Shown here one piece after another: positions 4,287 to 27,411 of a DNA stretch of 41,343 nucleotides (position 1 is the stretch's first letter; each line of letters begins with the position of its first letter). The notes below the pieces were generated by a model. That model was given only the letters and a program-made list of their open reading frames with translations, did no database searches and was not told where the DNA came from. The stretch spans positions 1 to 41,343 of the forward strand of contig JAISGH010000103.1 of assembly GCA_031263185.1 (NCBI GenBank), written 5' to 3'. The translations under genes and the position numbers were made by a program. Source of the stretch: Prevotellaceae bacterium (lineage in GTDB: Bacteria > Bacteroidota > Bacteroidia > Bacteroidales > UBA932).

Positions 4287-4320
4287 CTTAAAAATCTTAC
4301 TAAAATCATGATTCAGACAG

Positions 4321-7300
4321 TCAAATAAACGTTTCAGAAATTACAATATTTGGTTCGGTATTATCAATAGTCGATTCGGTCGAAACGGCTGTATAGTACT
4401 TGTCGTAGAGTTCATTTATCTGAATATCAATTTCATACTGTTTGTTTTTCATAATCTGCCTGTCGTTTTTAAGCTCGCGCGAAATGGTGCGGACTGTTTT
4501 TGCCAGCTGTGCGTAGATGCCCTGCTGAATATATTCACGAAGGCGCTTACAGCGACTGCGAATATCGTCATCTTCGGTTACCAGAGCATAACTTTGCAGA
4601 AACCGCTGCGCTTCGGCAGTGCCGCGGTCGTGCGATAATTCGTTCAAACTGCCGGTATCCTGCTGCGTAATACTTTCCATCTTAAATTTTTGCAAAGCAC
4701 GATTAACCTGTTCGTAATGAATCGATTCGGCATCTGCAAACGGCGCAGCCTGTTCCTCGCATTTTGCTTTCAAAATAAAAGCGGCTTCGAGGAAATCTAT
4801 CGGTTTTACTTCGCTTTGCGAAACGTTGTAATATTCTGTTTTTCTTGGCGATGAAACAAAAGCGATTGTTTCGTTGGATGCGTGGCGCACCGCGTCTGTA
4901 CATTTTCTTGCCACGCGGCTTTTCATCGGCAACGCCTTTATTTTTTTGTAAAGAGCACGGTCGGTATTGTACAGCTCCCGCACTTCGCGCAGCAGCTCCA
5001 ACTGTTTATCGACCTTGTCTTTGACTTTGGGGTTGAAAAGCTGAAATTCGCGAACAATTTCCTCCTTTGAATAAATCTGGGCATCTTCGCCCAAAGCCGA
5101 ATGAAATCCCTGCAACTTGATTAAAGCGTTGCGGTAGAGCTGAATTTGCGCATCGCCCTGCGCCGACGGATAAAACATATAATTATAGATTTCGCCTGCA
5201 ACCGAGCCGATACGGTTTACGCGCCCGATGCGCTGCATCAGTCGGGTTGCGTTCCAGGGCGAATCGTAGTTGACAATCACGTTTGCGCGGTGCAGATTGA
5301 CGCCTTCCGCCAGCACATCCGACGTGAGAAGAATATTGTATTTGTTGTCGAAATGTTCATAATTGGCGTCGAAGCAGCGGCGAATTGCGTCAAATTCGCG
5401 AGTGCGATTTACCGATGTAACTTCCAAAATATCGTGCCGCTGCAATTTTTCTATCAGATTTTTTTTCAGATAGTTGAGGGTATCTACGCTTTCCGAAAAA
5501 ACAACCACCTTTCCGGTTGGATTTTTTTGTTTGTCAAACAGCTCTGTTTTCAGTTTTTCGACGAACAAATCAAGCTTGGGGTCGTCGGTAATTTTGTCCC
5601 ACTGATTTTTCAGCTTAATCAGGCAATCGCGGTCGGCTTCAAGCATTGGCAGCAATTCTTCGGTAATTTCTGTTTCTTCTTCCGCTTCCGTATCTGCGAT
5701 TTTTTGTGGTTTGGCAGTAAAATCGTCGGGCGCAAAAACAATGTCCGCAGCGTCATAACCTTTTTCCACAGCGTATTCAATAATTCGGTCGAGTTCCCAA
5801 CCTTTTGCCTGCAAGTCTTTAATTTTCAATTCTGGCGCAACAATAATTTTGCCTTCTGCAAACATTTTAATCATATCGTTTGTAATACGCAAAAACGTAT
5901 CGAGCGATTTACGAAAGGCATCAAAGCTGCTTTCCAGACGTTTAACCATATGAACACGATATATTTCGGCAAGGTTTTTGCCGATATTGGCAGGATTTTT
6001 GAATTTCTTGCTGTGTTCCTCATTCAGAAACTCAACCGCACGGTATCGGGCATAGTGCAATTCGTTTGCCAGCACGTTTAATGTGCTGTAAAACAGCTCG
6101 TTAAGCTTGCCGTTTAATTTGTATGTCAAATCGTTGGGCGGTAATATGTCGGGGAATTTAATTTTTTGGTCGTCCAAATCGTGCTGATAATCCTCGTCGT
6201 TCATAATATTATGGCGGGTACGGCGAACGGTGATTTTATCGAGAGCCTGATTGCGGATTTCCTCATAAATGGCATCTATCTCGGCTGTGTCTGTCAAACG
6301 TTTGCGAGCTTTCATTATTTGGTTGTAGCGATCAATACGCGGCGCGAAAAATGCCTGTAAATTGCTTATTCCGGCTATGGTACAGCGTCGCGCATCCTGA
6401 AACAGCAGCATCAAATTGAGCAGGTCGTTCGGGCGATTATTCAAAGGGGTAGCCGAAAGCAGCATGATTTTTTTCCGTTCGCTTTTTATCAAACCGGCAT
6501 TATTGCGGGGCGACTTGCAAATCTGCTGCAATTCGTCGTATCGCGTAGTGCTGTCGCTGCGGAATCCGTGCGCCTCGTCAACAATTATCAGGTCAAATTC
6601 TTCTTTGGCCTTGTAATTGTTTTTGCCTTCAATCACTTTCGACAAGCTGCCATTGCTTACAAACTGCGCTTTTTTGCTGATTCCGAACCGCCGGAACGTA
6701 TCTTTCCAGTTGTCTTTCAATGCGGGCGGATAAACAACCAAAATATTGGTATTGCGTCCGTTTGCCTCTACAAATCGTTTTGCAATCATCGTTGCCACAA
6801 TAGTTTTACCCAAACCTACCACATCTGCAAGGAAAAAACCGTTGTGTTCGCAAAGCATCTGATAGCCCTGAATTACAGCATCGCTTTGATATTTCAGGTT
6901 GCGGATACCGTCGGGCAAAGCGGTAGAAAAATCATCTTCAATCTGGTCGCCGAAACTGTCAATCAACACCTTGATATACAATTCGTAAGGAGTGGGATAG
7001 ATGCCAATGTGGGTTTTAATTTTGCTTTTTTCAATATCATTTGCAGTAATCGGAATAGCTGTTTCCCACAGCTTATCAAATTCTTCCTTGCAGAAAGCCA
7101 CATCATCATAATCTTTCATAGCCACATTCAGCTCGTAACGTGGCGGTTCTGTCAGCCCCAATCCCGATTCCGAAATATTGGAAGACCCCATAATAACCCA
7201 GCCGTCGCTGTGCTGGGAATGAGTTTGCGGCAGGCAGAGGTAAAATTTGGCGTGTAAATTTTTTGTCGCATGAATTTTCATTTCCACTTTGCCTGTATGC

Positions 7301-7647
7301 AGGTCGTCGCACAGCTGTAAAATTCCCTGTTCAACCTCCGGCGCATAGCGGGCAGCCTGTACGTCGTTGATAAAATCCTGACTGTAAATCTCTTTTGCTT
7401 CTTCTTCATTGCCCAGCATCAGCATGGCGCGGTTATGCTTGCGAAAAATATTGTCGATATTGATTCCGACAAGAATTTGAATTTTCTGCACATTTGCAAG
7501 TTCTTCCCGCAGGCGAAAATAACCGGACGACCTGAAAAAACCAACAACAGCGTGAAAGCTGTGAAAATTTGCCATACCCTGCGCAATCCCTCCGAATTTA
7601 TCGAAGAGGGTGTTACCTGTCTGATTTGTAAAGAATTTTGAGGACAT
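4321..7647 (-). CDS. PLD-family (HKD) nuclease domain fused to an SNF2/SF2 helicase, followed by an uncharacterised ~300-aa C-terminal region.
   Basis: 1108-aa ORF. N-terminal HKD motif HAKFYL...GSSNIS. Helicase motifs LADVVGLGKT (I), IIVDEAHGF (II, DEAH), LLSATPLNN (III) and LAEGVNL...QRIGRVNRIG (V/VI). It lies 34 bp upstream of the MTase start on the same strand. Confidence 0.9.
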   Translation of the reverse strand: MSSKFFTNQTGNTLFDKFGGIAQGMANFHSFHAVVGFFRSSGYFRLREELANVQKIQILVGINIDNIFRKHNRAMLMLGNEEEAKEIYSQDFINDVQAARYAPEVEQGILQLCDDLHTGKVEMKIHATKNLHAKFYLCLPQTHSQHSDGWVIMGSSNISESGLGLTEPPRYELNVAMKDYDDVAFCKEEFDKLWETAIPITANDIEKSKIKTHIGIYPTPYELYIKVLIDSFGDQIEDDFSTALPDGIRNLKYQSDAVIQGYQMLCEHNGFFLADVVGLGKTIVATMIAKRFVEANGRNTNILVVYPPALKDNWKDTFRRFGISKKAQFVSNGSLSKVIEGKNNYKAKEEFDLIIVDEAHGFRSDSTTRYDELQQICKSPRNNAGLIKSERKKIMLLSATPLNNRPNDLLNLMLLFQDARRCTIAGISNLQAFFAPRIDRYNQIMKARKRLTDTAEIDAIYEEIRNQALDKITVRRTRHNIMNDEDYQHDLDDQKIKFPDILPPNDLTYKLNGKLNELFYSTLNVLANELHYARYRAVEFLNEEHSKKFKNPANIGKNLAEIYRVHMVKRLESSFDAFRKSLDTFLRITNDMIKMFAEGKIIVAPELKIKDLQAKGWELDRIIEYAVEKGYDAADIVFAPDDFTAKPQKIADTEAEEETEITEELLPMLEADRDCLIKLKNQWDKITDDPKLDLFVEKLKTELFDKQKNPTGKVVVFSESVDTLNYLKKNLIEKLQRHDILEVTSVNRTREFDAIRRCFDANYEHFDNKYNILLTSDVLAEGVNLHRANVIVNYDSPWNATRLMQRIGRVNRIGSVAGEIYNYMFYPSAQGDAQIQLYRNALIKLQGFHSALGEDAQIYSKEEIVREFQLFNPKVKDKVDKQLELLREVRELYNTDRALYKKIKALPMKSRVARKCTDAVRHASNETIAFVSSPRKTEYYNVSQSEVKPIDFLEAAFILKAKCEEQAAPFADAESIHYEQVNRALQKFKMESITQQDTGSLNELSHDRGTAEAQRFLQSYALVTEDDDIRSRCKRLREYIQQGIYAQLAKTVRTISRELKNDRQIMKNKQYEIDIQINELYDKYYTAVSTESTIDNTEPNIVISETFI

Positions 7648-9238: not shown

Positions 9239-9985
<747 letters not shown>

Positions 9986-10549
9986 GCGGAGTTCAGATTT
10001 GAAGTTCAACAAAATTGTACTGCACGATATATAATCTTATGCTGATTACAAACATGTAAAAATACAAAAATATCTTGAATAAGGGCTATCGTCAAAATGA
10101 GTAATGAGTTTAAAAGTGGCAAAATTATATGAAAAAATATATATTATTGAACGTCATATATTTGCTGTTTTTTTGCAGCGCTTGTATCTTTACGGCTATA
10201 TGCTATACTTCGCGTGGCGTGGTTTTGTGCATTGCCCGTTAGGACATTCATATCAATAGAATATGGGCGTCACCGAATTTTTCAAGCGCAAGGCTTTTGA
10301 GCACTTTTGCCATATTTCCTTGCACTTATATCACGTAATGTACAATATGCTGATTTATATATAATTACTACTTTTTCAACAGACCCTATTTAAAGCGACT
10401 ATTTGAAATACACCCGCACCTAAAAATATCGCAGAAAATAGCTGTATATACTTACCCATCAGGATTGTTAAATTTTTAGTGGTATGGTTGAGCCGCTCAA
10501 TAAATGAATTTTGAGCCGCTGAGGAAACCACAATTAAAATCTTTCGCTT

Positions 10550-10557
10550 TACCTTTG
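10550..10557 (+). promoter_or_regulatory. Candidate -7 box TACCTTTG upstream of the flavodoxin-like gene.
   Basis: TAnnTTTG match 28 nt upstream of the ATG at 10585. No good -33 TTTG was seen. Confidence 0.35.
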
Positions 10558-10584
10558 GGCTTTCATTTAAAAAAATAACAGCGT

Positions 10585-11139
10585 ATGAAGAAAATGACGT
10601 TTTTGGCAGCGTCCGTCCTTGCTTTAAGTAGCATTGCGCAGGCGCAGAGCAAGGGAAAAATCCTTATTGCCTACTTTTCGTGGGGCGGAAATACCCGCGA
10701 AGTGGCAAAGCAAATCCAGCAGCAAGCGGGTGGCGATTTGTTCGAAATCGCTACGGTAAAGACTTACCCCGCCGACTACGACGATTGCGTGGCGGAAGCC
10801 AAGCAAGAGCAGCAAGCCGACGCCCGTCCGCCGCTTGCAGCTGAGGTAAAGGATATGGCGGCTTACGACGCAGTTTTTGTGGGCTACCCCAACTGGTGGG
10901 GAACGATGCCCATGGCGCTGTTCACCTTTTTGGAAAAGTACGACCTCGGCGGCAAATCCGTTATCCCGTTCTGTACGCACGGCGGCGGGCGCTTGGGGCG
11001 TAGCGTGAACGACCTTCAAAAGTTGTGCCCCAACGCTACCCTCCTCGAAGGGCTGGCCGTTAGCAGCAACATGTCAAAGCGCTCAAAAGACGATGTAGCG
11101 CAGTGGCTGCAAAAAATAGGAATGATAAACGGTAAATAA
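10585..11139 (+). CDS. Exported flavodoxin-like protein (Flavodoxin_4-like).
   Basis: Sec-type signal MKKMTFLAASVLALSSIAQA. This is followed by KILIAYFSWGGNTREVAKQI...YDAVFVGYPNWWGTMP...VIPFCTHGGG, which is typical of this flavodoxin family. Confidence 0.8.
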   Translation: MKKMTFLAASVLALSSIAQAQSKGKILIAYFSWGGNTREVAKQIQQQAGGDLFEIATVKTYPADYDDCVAEAKQEQQADARPPLAAEVKDMAAYDAVFVGYPNWWGTMPMALFTFLEKYDLGGKSVIPFCTHGGGRLGRSVNDLQKLCPNATLLEGLAVSSNMSKRSKDDVAQWLQKIGMINGK

Positions 11140-11159
11140 AAAGAAATAAAATAAAACGT

Positions 11160-12665
11160 ATGCTACGAAAAGTTAGAACCATCCTCGCCTGTATTTTCTT
11201 TTTGCTGATTACGCTGCTATTCCTTGACTTTACGGGGACAATGCATCTGTGGTTTGGCTGGCTGGCAAAAATACAGCTCATGCCGGCAATACTGTCGGCT
11301 GCTACTGCCGCAGTAGCGTTTATTGTAATTCTCACGCTGCTTTTCGGGCGTGTTTACTGCTCTGTAATCTGTCCGCTGGGCGTACTTCAGGATAGCGTGT
11401 CCTGTGTTGCAGGCAAAAGAAAGAAAAATCGGTTTCGCCATTCTCCGGCCAAATCGTGGCTGCGCTACGGCGTACTTGGGCTATTTGTTGCTGCCGCTAT
11501 CTTGGGGGGCAGCGCGGTGGTGTCCTTACTTGACCCTTACGCTGCCTACGGGCGAATAGCGTCGAACTTTTTCGCTCCGCTGTACCGCGGTGGAAATAAT
11601 CTGCTGGACTGGCTTGCAGAGCGGGTAGGCAGCTACGCTTTTTACCCAACAGAGGTGTGGATAAAAGGATGGATAACATTTGGAGTAGCAGCGGCTACGC
11701 TGGCTGCCGTCGGCATACTCGCCTGGCGCAACGGGCGTACCTACTGCAACACGATATGTCCGGTGGGGACGGCGCTTGGATTTCTTTCCCGTTTTTCGAT
11801 TTTCAAGCTGACAGTTGACACGGAGAAATGTAAAAAATGCGGCCTGTGTGAGCGAAACTGTAAGGCTTCGTGCATTGATTCTAAAAATCACACCTTAGAT
11901 AAAAGCCGCTGCGTAGCGTGCTTCACCTGCGTGGAAAAATGCAGGTTTGGAGCAATGAAGTATGCGCCGGTAAGCATTGGGAAAAAGAAAAATATCAAGC
12001 CCGAGGCGGACGGCAAAAAAAATAGCGCGGATGGCGGCGTGTCTCGCCGCGGTTTCATGTCAATAGCCGGAATCCTCGCGCTAACGCAAACGATAAAGGC
12101 GCAGCAGCTTAAAGTAGACGGCGGGTTTGCTGATATTTTGGATAAGAAGGCGCCGGAGCGGAAAACGCCCATTGCGCCTCCGGGAGCTGCGAGCTTGCGC
12201 AACATGAACAAGCGCTGCACCGGCTGCCAGCTTTGCGTATCCGTGTGCCCCAGCGGTGTGCTGCGTCCGTCGGGTAAGCTCGAAACCCTGATGCAGCCCG
12301 AAATGTCATACGAAAAAGGCTACTGCCGCCCGGAGTGTACCGAGTGCTCGCAGGTTTGCCCAACGGGCGCCATTCGGAAGATTGCTCCGGCCGATAAGTC
12401 TGCCATTTCCATAGGTAAGGCTGTATGGGTGGAGGATACCTGCCTTGTAAATCGCGACAAAATACAGTGCCAGAGCTGCGTGGATAGTTGCTTGACAGGC
12501 GCTATCACCCTTGTTGCCATCAACCCGGAAGACAAAAAATCGCTGAAGCTTCCGGCGATTGACAAAGAGCAGTGCATAGGATGCGGAGCTTGCGAAAATC
12601 TTTGCCCTGCGCGCCCGTTCAGCGCTATTTACGTGGAGGGAAATGTTGTACATCATTCAATTTAA
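11160..12665 (+). CDS. Membrane polyferredoxin, apparently a NapH-like N-terminal half fused to a NapG-like C-terminal half.
   Basis: Several N-terminal hydrophobic helices. Two CX3CP motifs (CSVICPLG, CNTICPVG). CX2CX2CX3C motifs (CKKCGLCERNC, CVACFTCVEKC). An internal twin-arginine-like segment SRRGFMSIAGILALTQTIKA. Further cluster motifs CTGCQLCVSVCP, CTECSQVCP and CIGCGACENLCP. Confidence 0.8.
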   Translation: MLRKVRTILACIFFLLITLLFLDFTGTMHLWFGWLAKIQLMPAILSAATAAVAFIVILTLLFGRVYCSVICPLGVLQDSVSCVAGKRKKNRFRHSPAKSWLRYGVLGLFVAAAILGGSAVVSLLDPYAAYGRIASNFFAPLYRGGNNLLDWLAERVGSYAFYPTEVWIKGWITFGVAAATLAAVGILAWRNGRTYCNTICPVGTALGFLSRFSIFKLTVDTEKCKKCGLCERNCKASCIDSKNHTLDKSRCVACFTCVEKCRFGAMKYAPVSIGKKKNIKPEADGKKNSADGGVSRRGFMSIAGILALTQTIKAQQLKVDGGFADILDKKAPERKTPIAPPGAASLRNMNKRCTGCQLCVSVCPSGVLRPSGKLETLMQPEMSYEKGYCRPECTECSQVCPTGAIRKIAPADKSAISIGKAVWVEDTCLVNRDKIQCQSCVDSCLTGAITLVAINPEDKKSLKLPAIDKEQCIGCGACENLCPARPFSAIYVEGNVVHHSI

Positions 12666-12667
12666 CC

Positions 12668-14059
12668 ATGAAACAGAAAAGTAAAGCAGCCATTAACCGT
12701 AGAGATTTTTTTAAGGTGGCCGCAGCAGGAACCGTAACTGCCGGCACCCTTGTGTACCAAGGCTGCAAGCCTCGAAGCAGCGCCTCGTCCGAAGGCGGCG
12801 GCGCTGTTGGCGAAGTGCCTACCAACGGAATGACCTACCGTACTAACCCGCATACGGGAGACGTGGTGTCGCTTTTGGGGTACGGATGTATGCGCTGGCC
12901 GCTGAGGAAAAAGGCCGATGGCAGCGGCGAAGAAGTCGATCAGGAAATTGTTAACATGCTGGTGGATTACGCCATTGAGCACGGCGTTAACTATTTTGAC
13001 ACGGCGCCCGTGTACATTCGCGGCTGGTCGGAAACGGCAACAGGCATTGCCCTAAAGCGGCATCCGCGCAACAAGTTCTTCATTGCCACCAAAATGTCCA
13101 ACTCCAGCGACTTCAGCAGGCAAACCGCCATCAACATGTACAATAACTCTTTCAAGGCTTTGCAGGTTGACTATATTGACTACTACCTTCTCCACTCGGT
13201 TGGCGGCGGCAACGGGGTGGAAACATTCCTGCAACGCTACATAGAAAACGGCGTTTTGGATTTCCTGATTGCAGAGCGTAAGGCAGGCCGTATCCGCAAT
13301 TTGGGATGGTCGTTTCACGGCGATGTGAAGGTTTTTGACTACGTGCTGGCAATGGATATTCAGTGGGATTTTTGTCAGATACAGCTTAACTATCAGGACT
13401 GGCACAATGCAACCGGACGAAATGTCAACGCAGAATACCTTTACGAAGAGCTTGTAAAGCGTAACGTTCCGGCGGTAATCATGGAGCCTTTGCTGGGAGG
13501 TCGCCTTGCAAGGGTTCCGGTGCAGGCATTCTCGATGATGAAAGAAGTTCACCCTCAGGACACGCCGGCGCAGTGGGCGTTTCGGTACGCCGGTACGCCG
13601 GAAAATGTTTTGACCGTGCTTAGCGGCATGGTCTATATGGAGTACCTGCAGGAGGATATACGCACCTACGCGCCGCTTGTGCCGCTCAACGAGCAGGAGT
13701 ACAAAACGCTCGAAGAGGTAACCAAAGTGCTGATTGACTCGGATTATATCCAGTGCACAGAGTGCCAATACTGTATGCCGTGCCCCTACGGTATTGACAT
13801 TCCCGGCACGTTTGGGCACTACAACCGCTGCGTAAGCGCCGGAAAAATATTGAAAAGCGCAAACGACAACAGCTACAAAGAAGCGCGCCGTACATTTTTG
13901 GTTGGGTATGACCGCAGCGTTCCCAAGCTGCGCCAGGCCGACCACTGCATTGGCTGCGACATTTGCAGGCCTCGCTGCCCGCAAAGAATAAACATCCCGA
14001 GCGAAATGCGCCGCATTAACCGCTATGCGGAAAATCTGAAGCAAAAATCGGTATTTTGA
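12668..14059 (+). CDS. Tat-exported aldo/keto reductase with C-terminal Cys-rich 4Fe-4S-type motifs.
   Basis: Starts MKQKSKAAINRRDFFKVAAAG (twin-arginine signal) 2 nt after the preceding stop. AKR core (LGYGCMRWP...NYFDTAPVY...DYYLLH). C-terminal CTECQYCMPCP and CIGCDICRPRCP. The 12572 start in the ORF track would overlap the upstream gene. Confidence 0.85.
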   Translation: MKQKSKAAINRRDFFKVAAAGTVTAGTLVYQGCKPRSSASSEGGGAVGEVPTNGMTYRTNPHTGDVVSLLGYGCMRWPLRKKADGSGEEVDQEIVNMLVDYAIEHGVNYFDTAPVYIRGWSETATGIALKRHPRNKFFIATKMSNSSDFSRQTAINMYNNSFKALQVDYIDYYLLHSVGGGNGVETFLQRYIENGVLDFLIAERKAGRIRNLGWSFHGDVKVFDYVLAMDIQWDFCQIQLNYQDWHNATGRNVNAEYLYEELVKRNVPAVIMEPLLGGRLARVPVQAFSMMKEVHPQDTPAQWAFRYAGTPENVLTVLSGMVYMEYLQEDIRTYAPLVPLNEQEYKTLEEVTKVLIDSDYIQCTECQYCMPCPYGIDIPGTFGHYNRCVSAGKILKSANDNSYKEARRTFLVGYDRSVPKLRQADHCIGCDICRPRCPQRINIPSEMRRINRYAENLKQKSVF

Positions 14060-14064
14060 TAGCC

Positions 14065-14655
14065 ATGAAAGAAATAGTGGATATGCTGCGCGAAGGGAAA
14101 TATTCGTGCGTTATCAGAAACGGAGAAATCCGCACGTTCACGCGGCCGGGCGTAATTGACGCGTACTGCCTGCTGAAAAATGAGCCGGCTTTTCTGAAAG
14201 GAGCGTCGGTAGCCGATAAGGTTGTCGGGAAAGGCGCTGCTGCGCTCTTTGCCTTGGGCGAAGTAAGCGAGCTTTACGCAGACGTAATCAGTACGCCGGC
14301 GCTTGATTTGCTGAAAAAAACACCTGTCAAGGCGCTTTACAGGGAAGAAGTTCCTGCTATTAAAAACAAGTTGAATACGGGATTATGCCCGCTTGAGGCC
14401 AAGTGCGCCGGCAAAAATTCCGCCGCCGACATTCTTCCCCTTATTGATGACTTTATGAAAGAAAAATTACAGAACAAATGCGAATCAGTGGTAGAAAAAG
14501 TTGAATTACAATTTTGTAAAGACCTCACCCCCTGCCCCTCTCCGAAGGAGAGGGGAGCAAAGCCGCAACAGCTACCCTCGTGTACCGACTCCCCTCTCCT
14601 TCGGAGAGGGGCAGGGGGTGAGGTCTCAACCCTTAATTCGCAGAACAAAGTATAA
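14065..14655 (+). CDS. DUF1893 (TM1506-like) domain protein whose 3' end reads into a palindromic repeat element.
   Basis: MKEIVDMLREGKYSCVIRNGEIRTF...ADKVVGKGAAALFALGEV..YADVIS.PALDLL resembles the DUF1893 family as I recall it. The last ~45 codons (DLTPCPSPKERGAK...) are encoded by the repeat at 14521-14625. Confidence 0.7.
   Translation: MKEIVDMLREGKYSCVIRNGEIRTFTRPGVIDAYCLLKNEPAFLKGASVADKVVGKGAAALFALGEVSELYADVISTPALDLLKKTPVKALYREEVPAIKNKLNTGLCPLEAKCAGKNSAADILPLIDDFMKEKLQNKCESVVEKVELQFCKDLTPCPSPKERGAKPQQLPSCTDSPLLRRGAGGEVSTLNSQNKV
14521..14625. repeat. GC-rich nested palindromic element (REP/MITE-like).
   Basis: Arms 14521-14556 and 14590-14625 are perfect 36-bp reverse complements. Each arm contains its own palindrome cccctctccGAAGgagagggg. 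The spacer is 33 bp. Confidence 0.9.
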
Positions 14656-14666
14656 ATTAGAAGTAT

Positions 14667-14731
14667 CACATTAAAATCACCACATTTAAAATCATCACAT
14701 TTAAAACCATTACATTTAAAACCACTACATT
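14667..14731 (+). repeat. About 4.4 tandem copies of a 15-bp unit (YACATTTAAAAYCAY) abutting a start codon.
   Basis: Units cacattaaaatcac, cacatttaaaatcat, cacatttaaaaccat and tacatttaaaaccac, then a partial tacat that leads into the ATG at 14732. Confidence 0.9.
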
Positions 14732-15244
14732 ATGACACCTGCAAGCGTTAGATTTTATTCCTTTGGCTACAACGAGGCCAAAACTTACTTAGCTGCCTCC
14801 CTATTTGCGGTAGGAAATATTGCTTTGCCGCAGCTTTTTCATCTCGTGCCACAGGGCGGCATGACTTGGCTTCCGATTTACTTCTTTACGCTCATTGCCG
14901 CGTACAAGTACGGCTGGAAGGTCGGGTTGCTTACCGCAATTTTGTCTCCTCTGGTAAATTCGACCATTTTCGGGATGCCCGCATTGGCGTCTCTTCCCGC
15001 CATCCTCATTAAATCCATGCTGCTGGCGGTTGCCGCAAGCCTTGCCGCAAAGCATTTTGGTAAGGTTACCATTCTCCTGCTGCTGGGAGTTGTGCTATCG
15101 TACCAAGTTGTGGGTTCGCTGGCGGAGTGGCTCATAACCGCAAGCTTCAACGCCGCTACTCAAGACTTCCGCATGGCAATTCCGGGCATGCTGCTTCAAG
15201 TATTAGGAGGCTACGCTTTCATCAGGTTCGTACTAAAAAAATAG
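14732..15244 (+). CDS. Small polytopic membrane protein, possibly a vitamin-type (ECF S-component-like) transporter subunit.
   Basis: 170 aa with about 5-6 hydrophobic helices. The family assignment is only an impression from size and topology. Confidence 0.5.
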   Translation: MTPASVRFYSFGYNEAKTYLAASLFAVGNIALPQLFHLVPQGGMTWLPIYFFTLIAAYKYGWKVGLLTAILSPLVNSTIFGMPALASLPAILIKSMLLAVAASLAAKHFGKVTILLLLGVVLSYQVVGSLAEWLITASFNAATQDFRMAIPGMLLQVLGGYAFIRFVLKK

Positions 15245-15248
15245 CTTA

Positions 15249-17153
15249 GTGAAAAAACTCTCTTTTGCTTCTTTACTGTGCCTTTCCTGCGCGGCGTACG
15301 CGCAGGAAGCGGCGCAGGACAGTATTACTCACAACCTCGGAGATGTGGTGGTTACCGCCACCCGTACAGAGGTAAACCGTAGCAATGTACCCATGACCAT
15401 ATCGGTGGTGGGGCGCGAAGAAATAGAGCAAAGCGGCGAGTCGTCGGCGCTCTCAGCCTTGAGCGGACGGGTGCCGGGCTTGTTTATCACCGAGCGCGGC
15501 GTTACAGGTTTTGGCGTTTCAAACGGCGGCACGGGTGGTATCAGTATTCGCGGCGTTGGCGGATCGCCGACAACGGAAGTGCTGGTGCTCATCGACGGAC
15601 ATCCGCAGTACATGGGCGTTATGGGGCATCCGCTGCCCGACGCCTACATCGCCTCCGACGTAGAAAGAATAGAGGTAATACGCGGCCCCGCCTCGGTTCT
15701 TTACGGCAGCAACGCTATGGGCGGCGTGATTAACCTCATCTCGCGCCGGCAGACTTCCGACGGGTGGAAAGCAAACGCCCGCCTGATGTACGGCTCGTTC
15801 AACACGCAAAAGTATTCCGCTAATGCAGGCATCAACAAAAATAGCTTCGACGGCTTTATCTCCGTTAACCACGACCGAACCGACGGGCACCGCGATAACT
15901 CGCCTTTCAACCTGACCGGCGTTAACGGCCGCGTGGGCTATCGCCCGCTGGAGCAGCTGTATGTACATCTTGACGCAAATGTAGCCTCGTATATGGCGCA
16001 AAATCCGGGGGAAGAAGCCGCTCCCGTGTTTGATAACATTGCCGATATCCTGCGCGGCGAGGCGGCGTTAACAGTCGAAAATCATTTTGACAAAAACGGC
16101 GGCACCATCAAGCTGTTCTACAACTTCGGCGACCACTACATTAACGACGGGTACTATGACAGCAGATTTTCCACGCTCACGCCTCAGGTGTCACGCCCCA
16201 ACCGTTTTAAATCCAACGACCACAACTACGGTGTGCTGCTTTACCAAAGTGTCCGATTATTTAAAGGAAATACCATTACCGCCGGCATAGACTACAAGAA
16301 TTACGGCGGCTTTGCGCGGCAGGTGAACGCCGAAACAGGCGATGTGGCAGACGTTTTGCTCGCCGACACTTCATTTTACGAGGCGGCGGGGTACCTTACG
16401 GTTCAGCAGACGCTGTTTGACCGCTTTACGCTGAACGTCGGCGGGCGCTACGAGCACAACCAGCTCTACGGCGGCGAGTGGGCGCCGCAGGCAGGAATAA
16501 CTTATGCGCCGCAGAAAACAACCATACTGAAAGCCTCTGTAGCCAAAGGTTACCGTAGCCCTACGCTGCGCGATATCTTTATGTTTGTCCCTGTCCGCAA
16601 CCCCGACCTGAAGCCGGAGCGCATGTGGAATTACGAAGTATCGTGGGAGCAAAAGCTGTTAGGCAACCGGCTTTCGTTTGAGCTCACCGGTTTTATTGCC
16701 GATGGCAGCGGGCTTATTCAACGAGTAGGCAACCAAAATGTCAATAGCGGCAATTTCCGTAACACCGGCGCCGAGGTAGCCGTCAAATATCAGCCTTTGC
16801 AGCACTTGCACCTGCACGGCAGCTACTCCTACCTTCACATGCCCGCCGACAAGCGTGTTGCCTACGCTCCCGAGCAAATGGCGGAGCTCTCTGCCGCATA
16901 CGCAGGGCTGAAAAAGTGGAATTTCAACGCCGGCTATCGCTACGTAAAGGATGTGTATTCCAACGTCAGCACAGGCATCAAAAGCAGCTACGGATTGCTC
17001 GACGCGCAGATTTCGTACCGTCCCCTACAATGGCTCAACGTATTTGTAAAGGGTGAAAATCTTACCGATAAAAAATACGAAATTGTTACAGGGTACCCAA
17101 TGCCGGGTATTACAGTAATGGGGGGAGTAAGCGTGTCGCTCGGCAGCCGATAG
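15249..17153 (+). CDS. TonB-dependent outer-membrane receptor (small BtuB/CirA-size class).
   Basis: Signal peptide. Plug region LGDVVVTATRTE...ISVVGREEIEQSG. Motif IEVIRGPASVLYGSNAMGGVINLI. Total length is 634 aa. It has a GTG start 4 nt after the previous stop. Confidence 0.9.
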   Translation: MKKLSFASLLCLSCAAYAQEAAQDSITHNLGDVVVTATRTEVNRSNVPMTISVVGREEIEQSGESSALSALSGRVPGLFITERGVTGFGVSNGGTGGISIRGVGGSPTTEVLVLIDGHPQYMGVMGHPLPDAYIASDVERIEVIRGPASVLYGSNAMGGVINLISRRQTSDGWKANARLMYGSFNTQKYSANAGINKNSFDGFISVNHDRTDGHRDNSPFNLTGVNGRVGYRPLEQLYVHLDANVASYMAQNPGEEAAPVFDNIADILRGEAALTVENHFDKNGGTIKLFYNFGDHYINDGYYDSRFSTLTPQVSRPNRFKSNDHNYGVLLYQSVRLFKGNTITAGIDYKNYGGFARQVNAETGDVADVLLADTSFYEAAGYLTVQQTLFDRFTLNVGGRYEHNQLYGGEWAPQAGITYAPQKTTILKASVAKGYRSPTLRDIFMFVPVRNPDLKPERMWNYEVSWEQKLLGNRLSFELTGFIADGSGLIQRVGNQNVNSGNFRNTGAEVAVKYQPLQHLHLHGSYSYLHMPADKRVAYAPEQMAELSAAYAGLKKWNFNAGYRYVKDVYSNVSTGIKSSYGLLDAQISYRPLQWLNVFVKGENLTDKKYEIVTGYPMPGITVMGGVSVSLGSR

Positions 17154-17297
17154 CAAACTGTCATAATACCGGCACTTGGGCCGGAGCGTATGTCGGAAAT
17201 GTATCAATGCCGACAACTCTTTTTTTTGATGCTGATGTTCTCAACTTCAGCGGTATCTCTGATGCCTATACCAGCCTATACCACTATCAATCTTTTT

Positions 17298-17348
17298 CTA
17301 CGCAATCATTGAAATTTTTTTTTGCCGAAAATTTCAATGATTGCGTAG
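17298..17348. terminator. Perfect 21-bp stem hairpin between the TonB receptor gene and tRNA-Pro.
   Basis: ctacgcaatcattgaaatttt (17298-17318) pairs with aaaatttcaatgattgcgtag (17328-17348). There is no clean U-tract on either strand, so a terminator function is tentative. Confidence 0.4.
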
Positions 17349-17432
17349 CGCGAATTGTTAACTGTATCTAAACTGTATCTGAGATTTTGATACAGTTATT
17401 AATATCTGTATTTCAACGGCTTATTCTATAAG

Positions 17433-17507
17433 TCGGGGTGACTGGATTCGAACCAGCGGCCACGCGCCCCCCAGACGCGTACTCTAACCGGGCTGAGCTA
17501 CACCCCG
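17433..17507 (-). tRNA. tRNA-Pro (anticodon GGG).
   Basis: Minus strand CGGGGTG-TA-GCTC-AGCCCGGTTA-GAGT-A-CGCGT-CTGGGGG-GCGCG-...-GCTGG-TTCGAAT-CCAGT-CACCCCG-A. All four stems pair. The T-loop is TTCGAAT and the anticodon loop is CU-GGG-GG. No CCA is encoded. Confidence 0.9.
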
Positions 17508-17584
17508 AGCGTAGCATTTTGCGGGCACAAAGATAGTATTTTCTTTTTAATACGCAAAAGGATTTCTTTGAATTTTGAATTCTA

Positions 17585-17636
17585 AATTTTGAATTTTGAA
17601 TTGGCTTGCGCCGTCAGGAATTCAAAATTCAAAATT
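17585..17636. terminator. 18-bp stem hairpin built from GAATTTT heptamer repeats, overlapping the stop codon of the GH95 gene.
   Basis: 17585-17602 (aattttgaattttgaatt) pairs with 17619-17636 (aattcaaaattcaaaatt) around a 16-nt loop. More heptamer copies flank it on both sides (17568-17644). Confidence 0.5.
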
Positions 17637-20078
17637 CAAAATTTCCCCCGCCTCCGTTGCCACATCGTACTCCATGCTTGGTTTGAGCATTGGCGTGTGC
17701 AGCGTTGCCCGAGGCGAGGCAATGAGCGGCTTTGCTGCCTGCAAGGCAAAGAGCGGATTTTGGTTTTCGCCTTTTGCCGTCGCTGCTGTCGCTCCTTGCA
17801 GGGTAAGCGGGCTATGAGTACGCAGGCGCAGGTTGCCGCCCAAGTTCGATTTTATGGTTACCTTCGAGAGCTTTCCGTCGCTCCACTCCAGCGCTACAAT
17901 TTCAAACCCGCCGCGCGCGCGCAACCCCGAGATTTTGCCGCTTTGCCATGCGTCGGGCAGGGCGGGTAGCAGGTGCACCGCGCCGTCGTGGCTCTGCATA
18001 AGCATTTCGGCAATGCCGGCAGTGCAGCCAAAGTTACCGTCAATCTGGAACGGCGGATGGGCATCGAAAAGGTTGGGATACGTCCCGCCGCTCTCCTTGC
18101 GCGGTGAGATAGGGCGCACGGGCGACAGCTGGTCGGCAATGAGCTTGGCAGCGTGGTTGCCGTCCAGAAAGCGCGCCCACAGGCAAACTTTCCAGCCCAT
18201 GCTCCAGCCGGTGGAAACATCGCCACGGTAGATGAGCGATTGCCTGGCTGCCTCAAAGAGCTGCGGCGTGCGGAAGGGCGATATTTGGCAGCCCGGATAC
18301 AAGCCCCACAGGTGCGACACGTGCCGGTGCTTGTCCTTCGGGTCGTCCCAATCGTGCATCCATTCTTGCAGCTGGCTGTGCTGCCCGACCTGCATGGGAG
18401 CCAGCCGCTCGCGGGCTGCCTTGAGCTGCGCTGCAAAATCGGCATCAACGCCCAGCAGCGCGGCAGCGTGTATGGTGTTGGAAAACAAATCGAACACCAG
18501 CTGGTTGTCCATCGTATTGCCGGCAAAAACTTCCGCTTTTACGGGCAGCGTTTTGGGCGTATTTTCGGGCGATACCGAAGGGGCTACTACTAACCAGCCG
18601 TGCTCGGGTTCGGGGGTCAGGAAATCTAAAAAAAACTCTGCCGCTTCCTTCATTTGCGGGTAAGCGCTACGCAGAAAATTTTTATCGCCCGAATACAAAT
18701 ACCGGTCCCACAAATGCCGGCATACCCACGCTCCACCCACAGGCCATGTGCCCGACGCGGCGCGGTCTATGGCTCCCGTAACGCGCCAAATGTCGGTGTT
18801 GTGGTGCAGCGCCCAGCCGCGCGCGCCGTACATTACGTCGGCGCTCTGCCGGCCTGTTTCCGACAGCTCTTTCACCATCTGCAAAAACGGCTCGTGCATT
18901 TCGCTCAGGTTGGCAACCTCAGCCGGCCAGTAGTTCATCTCTGCGTTGATGTTGGTGGTGTACTTGCAATCCCACGAGGGCTTCATTTGGAAATTCCAAA
19001 TACCTTGCAGGTTGGCAGGCTGTCCGCCGGGCTGCGAGGCGCAGATGAGCAGGTAGCGCCCAAACTGAAAGTAAGTCGCCACCAGCTGCGGGTCGCTCTG
19101 CGAGGCGTATTCATTAATGCGGACGTCGGTTGTTTTCTCTGCCTGCGCTGTTTTCCCAAGGTCTATCTGTACGCGGTCGTAGTACTTTTTGTACGCCAGC
19201 GTATGGTCGTTGAGCAGGCTTGCAAAGGTTTTTTTCTCTACATTCTTCAAAAATGCTTCGGCGCGCTCAGCAGGGTCGCCGCTAACATCCTTATAATTTT
19301 TGAAGCTGGTAGCAGCCGACAGCAAAATGGTTGCCGAGGTTGCATTTTTTACGCTTATCGCAACGTTGTCGGAGGTAGCAACTCCGCCGTGGAGCAGCGC
19401 TTTCGCTACGGCGTAAAACCTCACCGCTCCCTTCACACCTTCATGGCTGCCCGACACTCCCTCAAGCGTCAGCGCGTTGCCACCCTGCACCCTGACGGTG
19501 GAGGTTTGCGGGCTGCTCAGCTGCATCGAAAAGCTCAGCTGCTCCGGCTTTGAGGCGGTCAACCGGATGGCTATCACCTGCGCCGCAAACGATGTTAACA
19601 CCTCGCGCTTAAACTCCACATCGCCTACCCTGTGCCTGACCGTAGCCACCGCCGTTTCCAAATTCAAATCGCGATAGTAGTCGGAAAATTGCTCGTGACC
19701 GTCAAAGGTGAGCCACAAGCTTCCTAAGGGTTGGTAGGGCATCCCGTGGTTTGTTTTTGACTGGATATTGCTGTCGCAGGCAGCCTGCGCCTCCCTGTAC
19801 TTTCCGTCGAAAATGAGCCGACGTATGCGGGGCAATTGGTCTTTTGCCTTCGGGTTAGGGTTGTTATTCGGCGCTCCCGCCCACAGCGTTTCCTCGTTGA
19901 GCTGCAACTCCTCGTGCGCCGGATTGCCGTACAGCATGGCGCCCAGCCGCCCGTTGCCCAGCGGCATAGCCTCCACCCACTTTTCGGCAGGCTTGTCGTA
20001 CCAGAGCGTAAAATCGTTTTGCGGTTGCGCCAAAGCAGCCGCAGGCATCATGAAAAATAGCAAACAAAATCGCCGCAT
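17622..20078 (-). CDS. Glycoside hydrolase family 95 (alpha-L-fucosidase-type).
   Basis: Signal peptide, then [46 protein letters not shown], the typical GH95 N-terminus. Total length is 818 aa. Confidence 0.9.
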
Positions 20079-20137
20079 AGCTGCTGAGATTTGAGGGTTA
20101 AACTTTTTTCGGGGACGTTACGCATCCATCAGCGTTA

Positions 20138-21325
20138 TCATCGCTTAGCTTTTTCCAGCTCAAGCGCCAGCAAAATAAACGGCGCCACTGCTTTTGGGTC
20201 GTTATCGCGCACCGGTTCGCTGATGTAGTACTCAAAGCTGCCGTCGCGGTAGCGCCCCGCGCCGCCCAAGCCCGATACTACGCAGCCTTTGGTGAGGTTG
20301 ATGGTGTTGTCGTTGTCGTTCACGGTAACGAACGTTTGCACCATGCCGTCAAAGACCTCTTGAGCTTTTTGCAGGTAGCTTTTGTCAAGCCAGCCGTTGT
20401 TTGCTCCCTTTGCCCAAGCGTAGCCAAACATAGCGGTGCCTGACGACTCCAGATAGTTGCCCTCGCGACTTCCCATGTCGGTTACCTGATACCACGTTTT
20501 CGATTGGGGGTCTTGCTGCTTTTCCAGCGCAACCGAAAGCTCCTTTAAAATATCAACAACGGCTCTATGCTTGGGGTGTTCCGGCGGCAAGTACTCCAGC
20601 ACATCCACCAGCGCCATCATGTACCAGCCCATGCTGCGGCTCCAGAAGTTGGGCGACATTCCGGTTTCCTTGTTTGCCCAGCGCTGCTCGCGGCTCTCGT
20701 CCCAACCGTGGTAGAAAAGACCCGTAACGGTATCGCGGGTGTGCCGCGCTACCAGCAGCAGCTGGTGCGTCACCTCGTCGTACAGCGCAGGCTCGTCAAA
20801 CGTCTTGCCGTATAGCGTGAGGAACGGCGAGGCCATGAACAGCCCGTCGAGCCACATCTGGTGGGGGTAAATCTGCTTGTGCCAGAAGCCGCCCTCGCTC
20901 GTGCGCGGATGCCGGCGCATTTGCTCGCGCAGCAGGTCGGCGGCATTTTTATACTTTTCCTCGCCGGTTTCGCTGTACAGCGCAAGCATTGTTTTGCCGC
21001 CGGCAATGTTGTCAATGTTGAACTTCTCGAGGTCGTAGGTGCGAATAGCGCTACCGTTGTCCTGCACCATAGTGTCGCCAAAGCTGCGCGCGTAGTCAAA
21101 GTATTTTTTAGCGCCGGTAGCCTTGTACACCTCATATATGGCGTAGGTTTCCAGCCCTTGGCAGTAGCCCCACTTGGGCTTTTTGGAGAAGTCGAGCATC
21201 CAGCTTTCGGGGTAGCGCGCCATTTCCGAATCGGTCATGCGCACCGACCATTTTTCGCTTGAGCAACCTGTGCTCGCCGCCAACGCCGCTGCGATGGCCA
21301 CTGTAGAAATACGTAATAAGTTCAT
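20138..21325 (-). CDS. GH88/GH105-family unsaturated rhamnogalacturonyl/glucuronyl hydrolase (lipoprotein).
   Basis: Chosen start MNLLRISTVAIAAALAASTGCSS (lipobox). The core HPRTSEGGFWHKQIYPHQMWLDGLFMASPFL matches Glyco_hydro_88-type proteins. The upstream 42 codons in the track look non-coding. Confidence 0.85.
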   Translation of the reverse strand: MNLLRISTVAIAAALAASTGCSSEKWSVRMTDSEMARYPESWMLDFSKKPKWGYCQGLETYAIYEVYKATGAKKYFDYARSFGDTMVQDNGSAIRTYDLEKFNIDNIAGGKTMLALYSETGEEKYKNAADLLREQMRRHPRTSEGGFWHKQIYPHQMWLDGLFMASPFLTLYGKTFDEPALYDEVTHQLLLVARHTRDTVTGLFYHGWDESREQRWANKETGMSPNFWSRSMGWYMMALVDVLEYLPPEHPKHRAVVDILKELSVALEKQQDPQSKTWYQVTDMGSREGNYLESSGTAMFGYAWAKGANNGWLDKSYLQKAQEVFDGMVQTFVTVNDNDNTINLTKGCVVSGLGGAGRYRDGSFEYYISEPVRDNDPKAVAPFILLALELEKAKR

Positions 21326-21540
21326 AGCTAATGTTGATTTAAAAAATGTATTTATGTTCGCAACATGAACAAAAGGCGGTGCAAGGTACGCAAAAAAATA
21401 AAAGCAGCAAAGAAAATTGTGTGCGCACACGAAAAAATAAAGCTTGCACAAAATTATTGTCTGTGTTTGCCTTTCTTAGCATGTTAATTTGAAATGCACC
21501 CCCTTTCGCTTTCGTATTTGTAAAGATGAGATTTTTCATG

Positions 21541-21548
21541 TAAGTTTG
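21541..21548 (+). promoter_or_regulatory. Candidate polA promoter: -7 box TAAGTTTG with a -33 TTTG at 21517-21520.
   Basis: TAnnTTTG match with a TTTG 20 bp upstream. The ATG lies 33 nt downstream. Confidence 0.45.
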
Positions 21549-21580
21549 CAGGCCAAATAATAAGAATCAACCGTATTTTC

Positions 21581-24376: not shown

Positions 24377-24568
24377 AGCGGTACGCAGGGCGCTCGCTGT
24401 GGCCTGCGCTGCTTCCGCTTTGTGTGTCCGAGCACATATTTTTAGTATGCTGAAAAACAGCATATTTGGCTATTTCATAGTGAAATTTATGCTTGACTAA
24501 TAGCATAATTACACGAAAAAGATTACTTTTGTATCCGTGCTTTACACGAAAGCAAGCACGAAAACAAA

Positions 24569-24731: not shown

Positions 24732-24803
24732 AAAGTAGTTTCGTGATTATCGAGGCAAAATTGTAAAAAATTCATATTGTAAAACCATAAATTATCCTTA
24801 ACC

Positions 24804-25901: not shown

Positions 25902-25941
25902 TTTTCTTTTTTTTTGAAAATCAAAAACTTACAACCAACGA

Positions 25942-27390: not shown

Positions 27391-27411
27391 CTTCCCGAAT
27401 TTTGACCGCTA

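Follow-up and report, generated by a model that had tools for sequence, protein, structure and literature searches.

Six co-directional genes in a contig of a Prevotellaceae bacterium (GenBank assembly GCA_031263185.1, contig JAISGH010000103.1, whose 41,343 nucleotides are referred to here as the window) make up a lineage-specific, fully equipped variant of a module that is found across the Bacteroidales and is seen also in an Akkermansia metagenome-assembled genome (MAG). The six open reading frames (ORFs), all on the forward strand between positions 10585 and 17153 and separated by gaps of 20, 2, 5, 76 and 4 bp, encode in order a flavodoxin-like protein, a polyferredoxin, an aldo/keto reductase (AKR) with a C-terminal iron-sulfur (Fe-S) domain, a protein of the DUF1893/TM1506 family, a small membrane protein resembling the S component of energy-coupling factor (ECF) transporters, and a TonB-dependent receptor (Table 1). 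The polyferredoxin is supported as the electron partner of the AKR, which carries a leader of the twin-arginine translocation (Tat) type, because the exported AKR comes with a polyferredoxin and the cytoplasmic AKR comes without one; the best evidence is that 115 of 117 Fe-S AKR genes with a twin-arginine (RR) leader share their locus with a polyferredoxin gene, one of the two exceptions lying at a contig end. We tentatively propose that the module takes up a micronutrient-like molecule by a route that includes a redox step in the periplasm, supplied via the polyferredoxin.

The six genes form an operon-like unit and are probably co-transcribed. The original prediction, made by reading the DNA letters, had described six co-directional genes with these same gaps and had named a family for each; the ORF coordinates confirm the layout, and Pfam and NCBIfam searches uphold all six assignments. 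It had overlooked that the polyferredoxin is a fusion with a Tat-like motif inside it, that the AKR is of lipoprotein type, that the small membrane protein resembles an S component, that a transposon-like insertion lengthens the DUF1893 ORF, and that PMC3239186 had earlier reported part of the neighbourhood. The window was traced to a termite gut metagenome, for which the matching sequencing runs are all of DNA, with no RNA runs, and its nearest relatives are Prevotellaceae MAGs. Labels beginning with L (L001, L010 and so on) denote fetched related loci, and those beginning with P (for example, P0344) denote proteins of the DUF1893 family.

Conservation of the module across the Bacteroidales

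A species scan anchored on DUF1893, with one genome per species, gave 80 Bacteroidales loci; several of these end at contig ends, so that the counts of neighbouring genes are lower bounds. Near DUF1893 lie the Fe-S AKR in at least 67 of the 80 loci, the polyferredoxin in at least 63, the S-component-like gene in at least 51, a TonB-dependent receptor in at least 30, tatA and tatC in at least 19 and at least 18, respectively, and an exported flavodoxin in at least 11. The same picture of co-conservation emerges from 80 metagenome loci, and the strong linkage of these genes across species bears out what the original prediction had expected of a functional cluster. Gene order varies between genera, with co-directional linkage maintained: in Bacteroides thetaiotaomicron a divergent AraC gene is followed by the genes for the AKR, polyferredoxin, DUF1893, receptor, S component, TatA and TatC, an arrangement that the B. 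ovatus locus resembles; another Bacteroides species has the polyferredoxin, AKR, DUF1893 and S component alone; and the Akkermansia MAG has the S component, polyferredoxin, AKR and DUF1893. Four genes (AKR, polyferredoxin, DUF1893 and S component) make up the core that is conserved more widely, and the TonB receptor, tatA/tatC and the exported flavodoxin are optional add-ons to it. The full six-gene set is limited to this Prevotellaceae lineage, comprising the closest relative of the window (L001/L010, which has the identical six genes in the same order and a different upstream flank) and L011.

These distributions bear on two of the roles first suggested for the window, where the flavodoxin was to take part in electron transfer and the receptor in substrate import. 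The family and export of the flavodoxin are borne out, as is the family of the receptor, but participation of a protein present in 11 of 80 loci, or an integral role for one present in 30, is not established. Chance adjacency of unrelated genes, or an artefact of annotation, is barely conceivable, as nothing speaks for it beyond the absence of transcript data, and it is contradicted by the 80 species and 80 metagenome loci, by gene orders that are shuffled and remain linked, by the tight spacing, and by the association of the RR-type AKR with the polyferredoxin.

The DUF1893 family is clearly tied to this system. A metagenome scan with divergent DUF1893 sequences, made to reach distant loci, again gave loci of Bacteroidales type; in the search for Firmicutes loci, a TM1506 fragment returned four proteins and tblastn against plasmids returned one Bacteroides record, and the Firmicutes context of TM1506 is taken solely from PMC3239186. 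The context of TM1506 in Thermotoga was set aside as uninformative, since the gene stands there alone beside a ribosomal protein operon.

Table 1. Features of the window in and around the six-gene cluster
Feature	Position	Strand	Basis or remark
Operator-like repeats: 13-bp near-palindrome TTGAGCCGCTCAA (10488-10500) and second copy TTGAGCCGCTGA (10511-10522), 23 bp downstream	10488-10523	+	
Bacteroidetes-type -7 box TACCTTTG (TAnnTTTG)	10550-10557	+	27 nt 5' of first ATG
Exported flavodoxin-like protein (Flavodoxin_4), Sec-type signal peptide …SSIAQA/QS	10585-11139	+	Pfam, NCBIfam
NapH-NapG fusion polyferredoxin, 501 residues	11160-12665	+	Pfam, NCBIfam, transmembrane segments and Cys motifs
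Tat-signal lipoprotein AKR with C-terminal di-cluster ferredoxin domain	12668-14059	+	Pfam, NCBIfam
DUF1893/TM1506 protein, 196 residues, no signal peptide	14065-14655	+	Pfam
Insertion of about 164 bp resembling a miniature inverted-repeat transposable element (MITE)	14479-14642		CAGAACAA direct repeat at both ends
Five tandem copies of an approximately 15-bp unit TTAAAAYCAYCACAT	14657-14730	+	Directly 5' of S-component start codon
Solitary ECF-transporter S-component-like membrane protein, 170 residues	14732-15244	+	Pfam, structure model, fold search
TonB-dependent outer-membrane receptor, 634 residues, plug and barrel, signal peptide, GTG start	15249-17153	+	Pfam, NCBIfam
Possible terminator: GTCGG…CCGAC stem and eight-T run	17192-17228	+	Read from sequence
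tRNA-Pro	17432-17507	-	After the possible terminator

Electron wiring of the aldo/keto reductase

The AKR reading frame starts with an ATG at 12668, with an alternative extension to a GTG at 12572. Its product belongs to the AKR superfamily (Aldo_ket_red, PF00248; E = 2.2e-34, 119.3 bits against a cutoff of 24) and also matches the Pfam families Fer4_9 and TAT_signal. The leader consists of the twin-arginine motif NRRDFFK, an h-region rich in Ala, Gly and Thr, and a Cys; against the NCBIfam model TIGR01409 the score equals the cutoff of 16.7. We read the protein as a Tat-type lipoprotein of the periplasm because the RR motif and the lipobox Cys recur in 59 of 65 relatives, a result that agrees with the export route first predicted, as does the adjacency of tatAC to the module in 18-19 of the 80 species loci; there is no tatAC within the 41-kb window. 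The six exceptions are mostly truncated or frame-shifted ORFs; they include L086, with an RG variant of the motif (GRGEFLK), and the full-length AKR of L089 has an N-terminus that does not read as AKR.

In an alignment of 33 AKR sequences the tetrad D111/Y116/K142/H176 is invariant, and so are eight cysteines arranged as CxxCxxCxxCP and CxxCxxCxxxCP. The cysteines are predicted to serve two [4Fe-4S] clusters, and the intact tetrad predicts catalytic competence. Maintained in the same alignment are motifs like those that bind NAD(P): QIQ, MEPLLGGRL and LSGM…EHLQDN. A structure model of the AKR from its single sequence reached a predicted local distance difference test (pLDDT) score of 38 and was discarded. 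The literature searched holds no functional study of AKRs of this kind (COG1453/K07079) or of Bacteroides combinations of Tat and AKR.

The polyferredoxin matches Fer4_5 and several other Fer4 families in Pfam, and NCBIfam detects similarity to NapH/MauN (1.1e-21) and NapG/MauM (1.9e-17), in both cases well below the equivalog cutoffs (TIGR02163, 77.5 vs 213; NF007012, 63.3 vs 269). Its architecture in the first part is that of NapH: four transmembrane segments (residues 8-26, 44-62, 105-123 and 170-188) are followed, after each helix pair, by a CX3CP motif (CSVICP at 67, CNTICP at 196), and ferredoxin-type Cys motifs predicted to be cytoplasmic lie at about residues 224-262. Beyond these come an internal Tat-like motif, SRRGFMS, with a mildly hydrophobic segment (about residues 303-325), and then a NapG-like domain with multiple [4Fe-4S] motifs. 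The protein can be described as a fusion of a NapH-like with a NapG-like half, the latter keeping its Tat-type leader; 54 of 60 relatives have the internal RR motif as well. The window, where flanking ORFs were scanned to 28.9 kb, yielded no nap genes, and neither did the related loci, among their called genes and in searches with the six families.

Leaderless Fe-S AKRs stand beside DUF1893 and the S component, with no polyferredoxin, in L066 and L164. The L164 enzyme is 35% identical to that of the window over the whole mature length and retains all key motifs; in L025 a more distant leaderless AKR (23% identity) apparently lacks the Tyr, Lys and His of the tetrad, as judged from a pairwise alignment. 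The pattern suggests that equal chemistry could run on either side of the inner membrane.

The first reading of the window had electrons passing from the quinone pool through the polyferredoxin to a periplasmic AKR, which would reduce a carbonyl-containing substrate. The link between the two proteins has gained from the 115 of 117 association and from the cytoplasmic AKRs without a polyferredoxin, but neither the reductive direction of flow from quinol nor the carbonyl nature of the substrate is established. In an oxidative scheme the periplasmic AKR would instead act as a dehydrogenase (of an aldose or an alcohol, for example), its electrons would pass via its Fe-S domain and the NapG/NapH-like protein to menaquinone and on to fumarate respiration, and the carrier would import the oxidised product. 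Electron flow from a donor at the level of NAD(P)H to menaquinone is thermodynamically downhill, AKRs are reversible, and L-galactose dehydrogenases are among the top PDB sequence matches of the window AKR. NapH-like modules are moreover used modularly, delivering electrons to periplasmic reductases or taking them from oxidases (PMC8238504). We nonetheless consider the oxidative scheme unlikely: the PDB matches, at E about 1e-11, amount to generic AKR similarity, a cytoplasmic Fe-S AKR without a membrane partner would require another electron acceptor, and ECF S-component carriers are typical for micronutrients and not for bulk carbon sources.

The same wiring might alternatively serve to detoxify or respire, within the periplasm, reactive carbonyls or quinones derived from diet or host, with the receptor and carrier peripheral to it. 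The layout of NapGH plus Tat is typical of respiratory reductases, the neighbours of Bacteroides loci are rich in further oxidoreductases of carbonyls and quinones and in esterases (iron- and zinc-dependent alcohol dehydrogenases, Fe-ADH and Zn-ADH; AKRs; short-chain dehydrogenases/reductases; Flavodoxin_2/FMN_red proteins; DLH-like hydrolases), and one remodelled copy of the module adjoins the conjugative-transposon genes RteC and TraG. Against this, the enrichment among neighbours is anecdotal, the transposon-linked copy has its DUF1893 cut to a 50-residue remnant, and both the conserved pair of S component and DUF1893 and the cytoplasmic variants would be left unexplained, such that we rate the idea as quite improbable.

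Transport proteins, DUF1893 and a proposed uptake route

By sequence the small membrane protein is only weakly related to ECF S components (ECF_trnsprt, PF12822; E = 0.008, 16.6 bits against a cutoff of 30.7), and no NCBIfam model matched it at E up to 0.01; 27 of 28 relatives likewise match ECF_trnsprt weakly, the best at 9.6e-07, and the Pfam S-component families of defined substrate were uninformative when compared. An AlphaFold2 model (pLDDT 78.9) has the six helices of the S-component fold, and its top 13 fold matches in the PDB are all ECF S components (PanT, RibU, ThiT, FolT and BioY), with template-modelling scores of 0.50-0.64 and probabilities of 0.9-1.0, but with Foldseek E-values of just 0.06-0.7. 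On the model, then, the protein is predicted to have an ECF S-component fold, in line with the transporter role proposed for it at the outset; the B. thetaiotaomicron homologue is labelled by NCBI as an ECF transporter S component. The gene stays beside DUF1893 in loci from which the periplasmic enzyme is absent (L093, L025, L066 and L164), which, like the fold, favours a role in import.

The flavodoxin-like protein (PF12682; E = 3.8e-34, 117.9 bits) has an SWGGNT loop of the kind that binds the phosphate of flavin mononucleotide (FMN), which it is predicted to bind, and scores 167.6 against PRK06934 of NCBIfam, just below the cutoff of 172. Its closest solved structures, 4ici, 3klb and 4j8p, are labelled putative flavoproteins or flavodoxin, and no functional study of exported flavodoxins was found in the literature searched. 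The claim that it is exported is sustained by the Sec-type signal peptide of the window protein and by the signal peptides of the cluster-type upstream flavodoxin-like ORFs printed from the species loci. Two further printed ORFs are of a different subtype (that of L038 and the second of L075), the latter without an obvious signal.

An exported flavodoxin raises the matter of how its cofactor would be supplied. It would have to gain FMN outside the cytoplasm, and the S-component-like protein, possibly together with DUF1893, might export a cofactor such as flavin to the flavodoxin or the AKR, similar to RibU-based trafficking in Listeria, no substrate being imported at all; flavin export based on an S component has a precedent (PMC9973259), and the S-component gene lies directly 5' of tatA in most of the loci that bear tatAC. 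The S component is nevertheless found in 51 loci and the flavodoxin in 11, it persists where its partners are solely cytoplasmic, and no EcfT-like or ApbE-like gene was seen in the loci, which together make supply of this kind very unlikely.

The receptor is a member of the TonB-dependent family, with Plug (PF07715, 84.8 bits) and TonB_dep_Rec_b-barrel (PF00593, 143.9 bits) domains both above cutoffs. BtuB is its nearest known relative, with scores of 155.9 vs 599.7 bits for TIGR01779 and 128.9 vs 836 for NF007926. An assignment as BtuB was rejected, as these scores are far below the equivalog cutoffs and no cobalamin riboswitch lies upstream.

Membership of the fourth gene product in DUF1893 is secure (PF08973; E = 2.4e-42, 144.1 bits against a cutoff of 27; PDB matches 1vk9 and 9e9a). 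The domain is encoded at 14065-14481 and the last 57 residues are an extension derived from an insertion: relatives are about 139 residues long, the window ORF is 57 residues longer than all of them, and it reaches 196 residues because the MITE-like insertion just before the stop codon has displaced that codon. The element contains a 38-bp perfect inverted repeat (14520-14557 and 14589-14626) within outer, imperfect inverted repeats (TGCGAAT…ATTCGCA), folds as RNA into a hairpin of -94 kcal/mol (z = -12.6), and is absent from the 94%-identical closest relative.

The genes for DUF1893 and the AKR are tightly coupled: the gene 5' of DUF1893 ends between -8 and +25 bp from the DUF1893 start in 42 of 47 loci, and two proteins, P0344 and P0367 (each from a single short metagenome contig), have DUF1893 fused to the C-terminus of an Fe-S AKR. 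Other fusions join DUF1893 to a PNPOx-like flavin domain (P0364/P0407) or to DUF2264 behind a signal peptide, and there is a tandem lipoprotein form; the PNPOx fusion locus, L093, has an adjoining S component and no AKR, and the tandem lipoprotein locus has a receptor, polyferredoxin, AKR and TatAC, with no S component. Signal peptides occur in 6-7 of roughly 268 DUF1893 sequences. The invariant Asp of the DUF1893 motif ADKVVGK aligns with the Asp of IDKMVGK in TM1506, which a residue count places at Asp56 (the PDB chain is offset by +12 residues); in the TM1506 crystal, Asp56 is ADP-ribosylated (PMC3239186). The literature searched contains no functional study of DUF1893/TM1506.

In five species (L034, L044, L059, L066 and L077) the DUF1893 ORF continues in frame into the receptor ORF, the receptor keeping its own Met and signal peptide. 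The interpretation of these as true periplasmic fusions of DUF1893 and a TonB receptor was rejected for the latter reason: they seem to have arisen by loss of a stop codon, an event that would keep DUF1893 in the cytoplasmic compartment. Such read-throughs account for the TM1506-TonB receptor fusions of the literature, reported in Bacteroidetes by Iyer et al. 2011 (PMC3239186), and for the label 'iron complex outermembrane receptor' that DUF1893 proteins of 139 residues bear in some sources.

The coupling of the two genes would also be expected if DUF1893 did not handle the substrate but were a maturation factor or subunit of the AKR, comparable to FdhD, which matures the Tat-exported formate dehydrogenase. 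It would then load or modify a nucleotide cofactor, NAD(P) or one like ADP-ribose, ahead of export by Tat, or would itself be co-exported as a hitchhiker. The fusions of Fe-S AKR and DUF1893 and the alignment of the ADP-ribosylated Asp56 of TM1506 with the invariant Asp of ADKVVGK point the same way, and the exported versions imply that the domain can work in the periplasm. To this role, too, we assign a low probability: DUF1893 occurs with the S component and without the Fe-S AKR in L093 (the PNPOx fusion) and L129 (as a pair) and alone in Thermotoga beside ribosomal genes, the read-throughs into the receptor would keep it on the cytoplasmic side, and the two AKR fusion proteins stem from single short metagenome contigs.

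The uptake route that we favour would operate as follows. A scarce, polar, vitamin- or cofactor-like molecule would cross the outer membrane via the TonB receptor, where one is present; in the periplasm the Tat-lipoprotein AKR, with its two [4Fe-4S] clusters, would alter the redox state of the molecule, probably at a carbonyl or quinone function. The ferredoxin domain of the AKR would exchange electrons with the periplasmic NapG-like half of the polyferredoxin, the NapH-like membrane half would link this wire to menaquinol or to cytoplasmic Fe-S donors, and the exported flavodoxin may be an optional mediator. The compound would then cross the inner membrane via the solitary ECF-type S component, and DUF1893, with its deaminase-like fold, would bind or convert it. 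Gene order and spacing, family assignments, export motifs, co-conservation, the coupling of polyferredoxin and Tat-type AKR, and the S-component fold provide the observed basis of this scheme; from these we infer the direction and source of the electrons, the class of substrate, the order of the steps, and the compartment and chemistry of DUF1893. Quinones such as menadione, B6 vitamers and pterin aldehydes are candidate substrates by speculation from family chemistry alone.

Several observations weigh against this uptake route. The AKR retains NAD(P)-like motifs, and it is for this reason that flavin-free hydride chemistry from one-electron Fe-S centres would be hard to explain; electron flow could equally be oxidative. 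The TonB receptor and the flavodoxin are missing from most relatives, and no EcfA/A'/T genes lie beside the S component in the window or in the loci inspected (whole genomes were unsearched). The compartment of DUF1893 is ambiguous, most copies having no signal peptide, a few having one, and one exported tandem version occurring without the S component. The MITE hairpin between the DUF1893 and S-component genes might affect transcription of the genes downstream. Finally, there is no substrate clue from riboswitches in the window or in nine related loci, or from functional literature on the module: Rfam searches for riboswitches (B12, TPP, FMN, preQ1 and others) found no family except tRNA at gathering score in the whole window, no match at E up to 10 over 9900-10700, which covers the 570-bp upstream region, and nothing but tRNA and RNase P at gathering score in nine diverse related loci.

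A bolder interpretation, possible but doubtful, is that the module represents an unrecognised class of enzyme and pathway, in which a ferredoxin-wired AKR (a Tat lipoprotein or a cytoplasmic protein) performs redox chemistry on carbonyls or quinones without a free NAD(P)H pool, fed across the membrane by the NapH-NapG fusion, and DUF1893, whose invariant Asp is the one ADP-ribosylated in TM1506, is a new ribosyl- or nucleotide-handling enzyme, the two serving jointly in salvage of a cofactor or vitamin precursor in the Bacteroidales. Under this interpretation the Tat pathway of Bacteroides might have its main client in this system.

Control sequences, neighbouring genes and known systems

The approximately 95 bp 5' of the flavodoxin ATG are nearly invariant among the window, L010 and L011, and the sequences diverge farther upstream. 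This region holds the paired operator-like motif, which among 178 loci is present in the window and its relatives L010 and L011 only. It also holds the -7 box, a short motif with 45 matches in the window vs 33 expected; no other match on the forward strand lies in any intergenic gap of the cluster. Because both elements occur only 5' of the first gene, the arrangement fits a single regulated promoter before the flavodoxin gene, for which the -7 box is weak evidence. The tandem repeat before the S-component gene, of which L010 has a shorter version, is possibly a regulatory site. At the other end of the unit, the possible terminator stem has a loop of more than 8 nt, which is why the terminator scan was silent on it.

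The genes around the cluster were also surveyed. Upstream and on the reverse strand, an OmpA-family protein (9239-10012) has its N-terminal region separated from the OmpA domain by a long Asn/Asp homopolymer tract, in which runs of N and D cover about 45 residues; farther off, two large reverse-strand genes at 915-7647 encode a methylase of Eco57I type (1123 residues), which has a TaqI-like specificity domain, and a helicase (1108 residues), which has ResIII, SNF2-like and PLD-like domains. Such genes are typical of a restriction-modification or defence system, and they lie in a region of lower GC content (0.33-0.46). Downstream, a block of PolA, LacI, mannitol-dehydrogenase-family and altronate-dehydratase genes (17622-28899 of the window) is common to L001, where it is inverted (13266-20420); GH95, GH88 and tRNA-Pro(GGG) genes separate the window cluster from it.

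Two unusual variants were encountered among the related loci. On human gut metagenome contigs (L181/L182, 1-18510) a remodelled module contains the polyferredoxin, Tat-type AKR and DUF1893 remnant of 50 residues, followed by inserted genes for an AKR, a Zn-ADH, AraC, an FGE-sulfatase-like protein and three flavodoxin-like proteins, and then by the S component, TatA and TatC. Because its neighbours are genes for a hybrid histidine kinase, a sigma-54 activator, RteC and TraG-like proteins, this copy probably sits on a conjugative transposon. Its use as proof that DUF1893 is dispensable was rejected, the remnant marking it as a remodelled copy. The second variant (L097/L098, 1943-12543) combines the tandem-DUF1893 lipoprotein with the receptor, polyferredoxin, AKR and TatAC, and lies directly 3' of cobW-like and hypA genes and a gene for a 950-residue Fe-S/flavin oxidoreductase; the cobW-like and hypA neighbours may indicate a metal link, or a coincidence.

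The module occurs together with tatAC in B. thetaiotaomicron, B. ovatus, B. finegoldii and B. xylanisolvens, which are model species of the human gut, and a function assigned to it would transfer to these abundant commensals. Such a function would give a role to three uncharacterised families, Fe-S AKRs (COG1453/K07079), DUF1893/TM1506 and an orphan S-component family, would probably reveal one of the major clients that the Tat pathway has in Bacteroides, and would show how a redox step in the periplasm of an anaerobe is powered when nutrients are captured. The way in which cytoplasmic and periplasmic variants correlate with the polyferredoxin offers a clean, testable handle on the electron wiring.

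Taken one by one the parts are familiar, namely a wire of the NapGH kind, an AKR, a lipoprotein of Tat type, an S component of ECF type and a TonB receptor, and the core association of TM1506, AKR, 5TM protein and TonB receptor was already published in 2011 (PMC3239186). Not in the literature searched are the NapH-NapG fusion partner, the Tat-lipoprotein AKR, the linkage to tatAC, the periplasmic/cytoplasmic switch that goes with presence or absence of the polyferredoxin, the assignment of an S-component fold to the '5TM' protein, and any function of the module. In Firmicutes and Bacteroidetes, Iyer, Zhang, Rogozin and Aravind likewise described TM1506 in association with a '5TM' protein and with an AKR whose C-terminal module is rich in Cys, and proposed a NAD/ADP-ribose-binding regulator of transport (PMC3239186). 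They took this module for a rubredoxin-like zinc ribbon, whereas here it matches a di-cluster ferredoxin with eight invariant Cys, and their account is without the polyferredoxin, Tat-lipoprotein AKR, tatAC linkage, exported flavodoxin and ECF S-component fold. FdhD, the maturation protein of formate dehydrogenase, is small and cytoplasmic and serves a redox enzyme that leaves by the Tat route; it shares the deaminase-like fold class with TM1506 (PMC3239186) and is likened to DUF1893 by fold class; DUF1893, in contrast, occurs also without any Tat substrate.

The nearest systems to the window polyferredoxin are NapG/NapH, the quinol dehydrogenase of periplasmic nitrate reductase, and NapH-like modules such as NosR and PceC. 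It has the four transmembrane segments, two CX3CP motifs and cytoplasmic ferredoxin motifs of NapH, and like NapG a Tat-type leader ahead of a multi-[4Fe-4S] periplasmic domain; in common, too, is the presumed role as a transmembrane electron link to a periplasmic redox enzyme. It differs in that the halves are fused, the Tat-like motif is central and the scores are far below cutoffs; its partner is an AKR, with no napA, napB or napC in the window. It differs also from flavinylated NapH-like systems in having no FMN-binding domain.

The glucose-fructose oxidoreductase of Zymomonas mobilis, which binds NADP tightly, folds and takes up its cofactor in the cytoplasm before Tat carries it to the periplasm. 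It provides a precedent for a Tat-exported nicotinamide enzyme, but has a GFO/IDH/MocA fold, no Fe-S domain and no membrane electron partner. The small membrane protein resembles the ECF S components RibU, ThiT, FolT, PanT and BioY in its size and in the fold predicted for it, but differs from them in its weak sequence score and in the lack of EcfA/A'/T genes nearby. Vitamin loci of Bacteroides (BtuB-type for B12, and OMthi-PnuT for thiamine) pair a TonB receptor with a small inner-membrane carrier, and the window similarly combines a small receptor (about 630 residues) and a small carrier without ATPase genes; it departs from them in that it has no riboswitch, its receptor fails the BtuB cutoffs, and a periplasmic redox enzyme would stand between the two transport steps.

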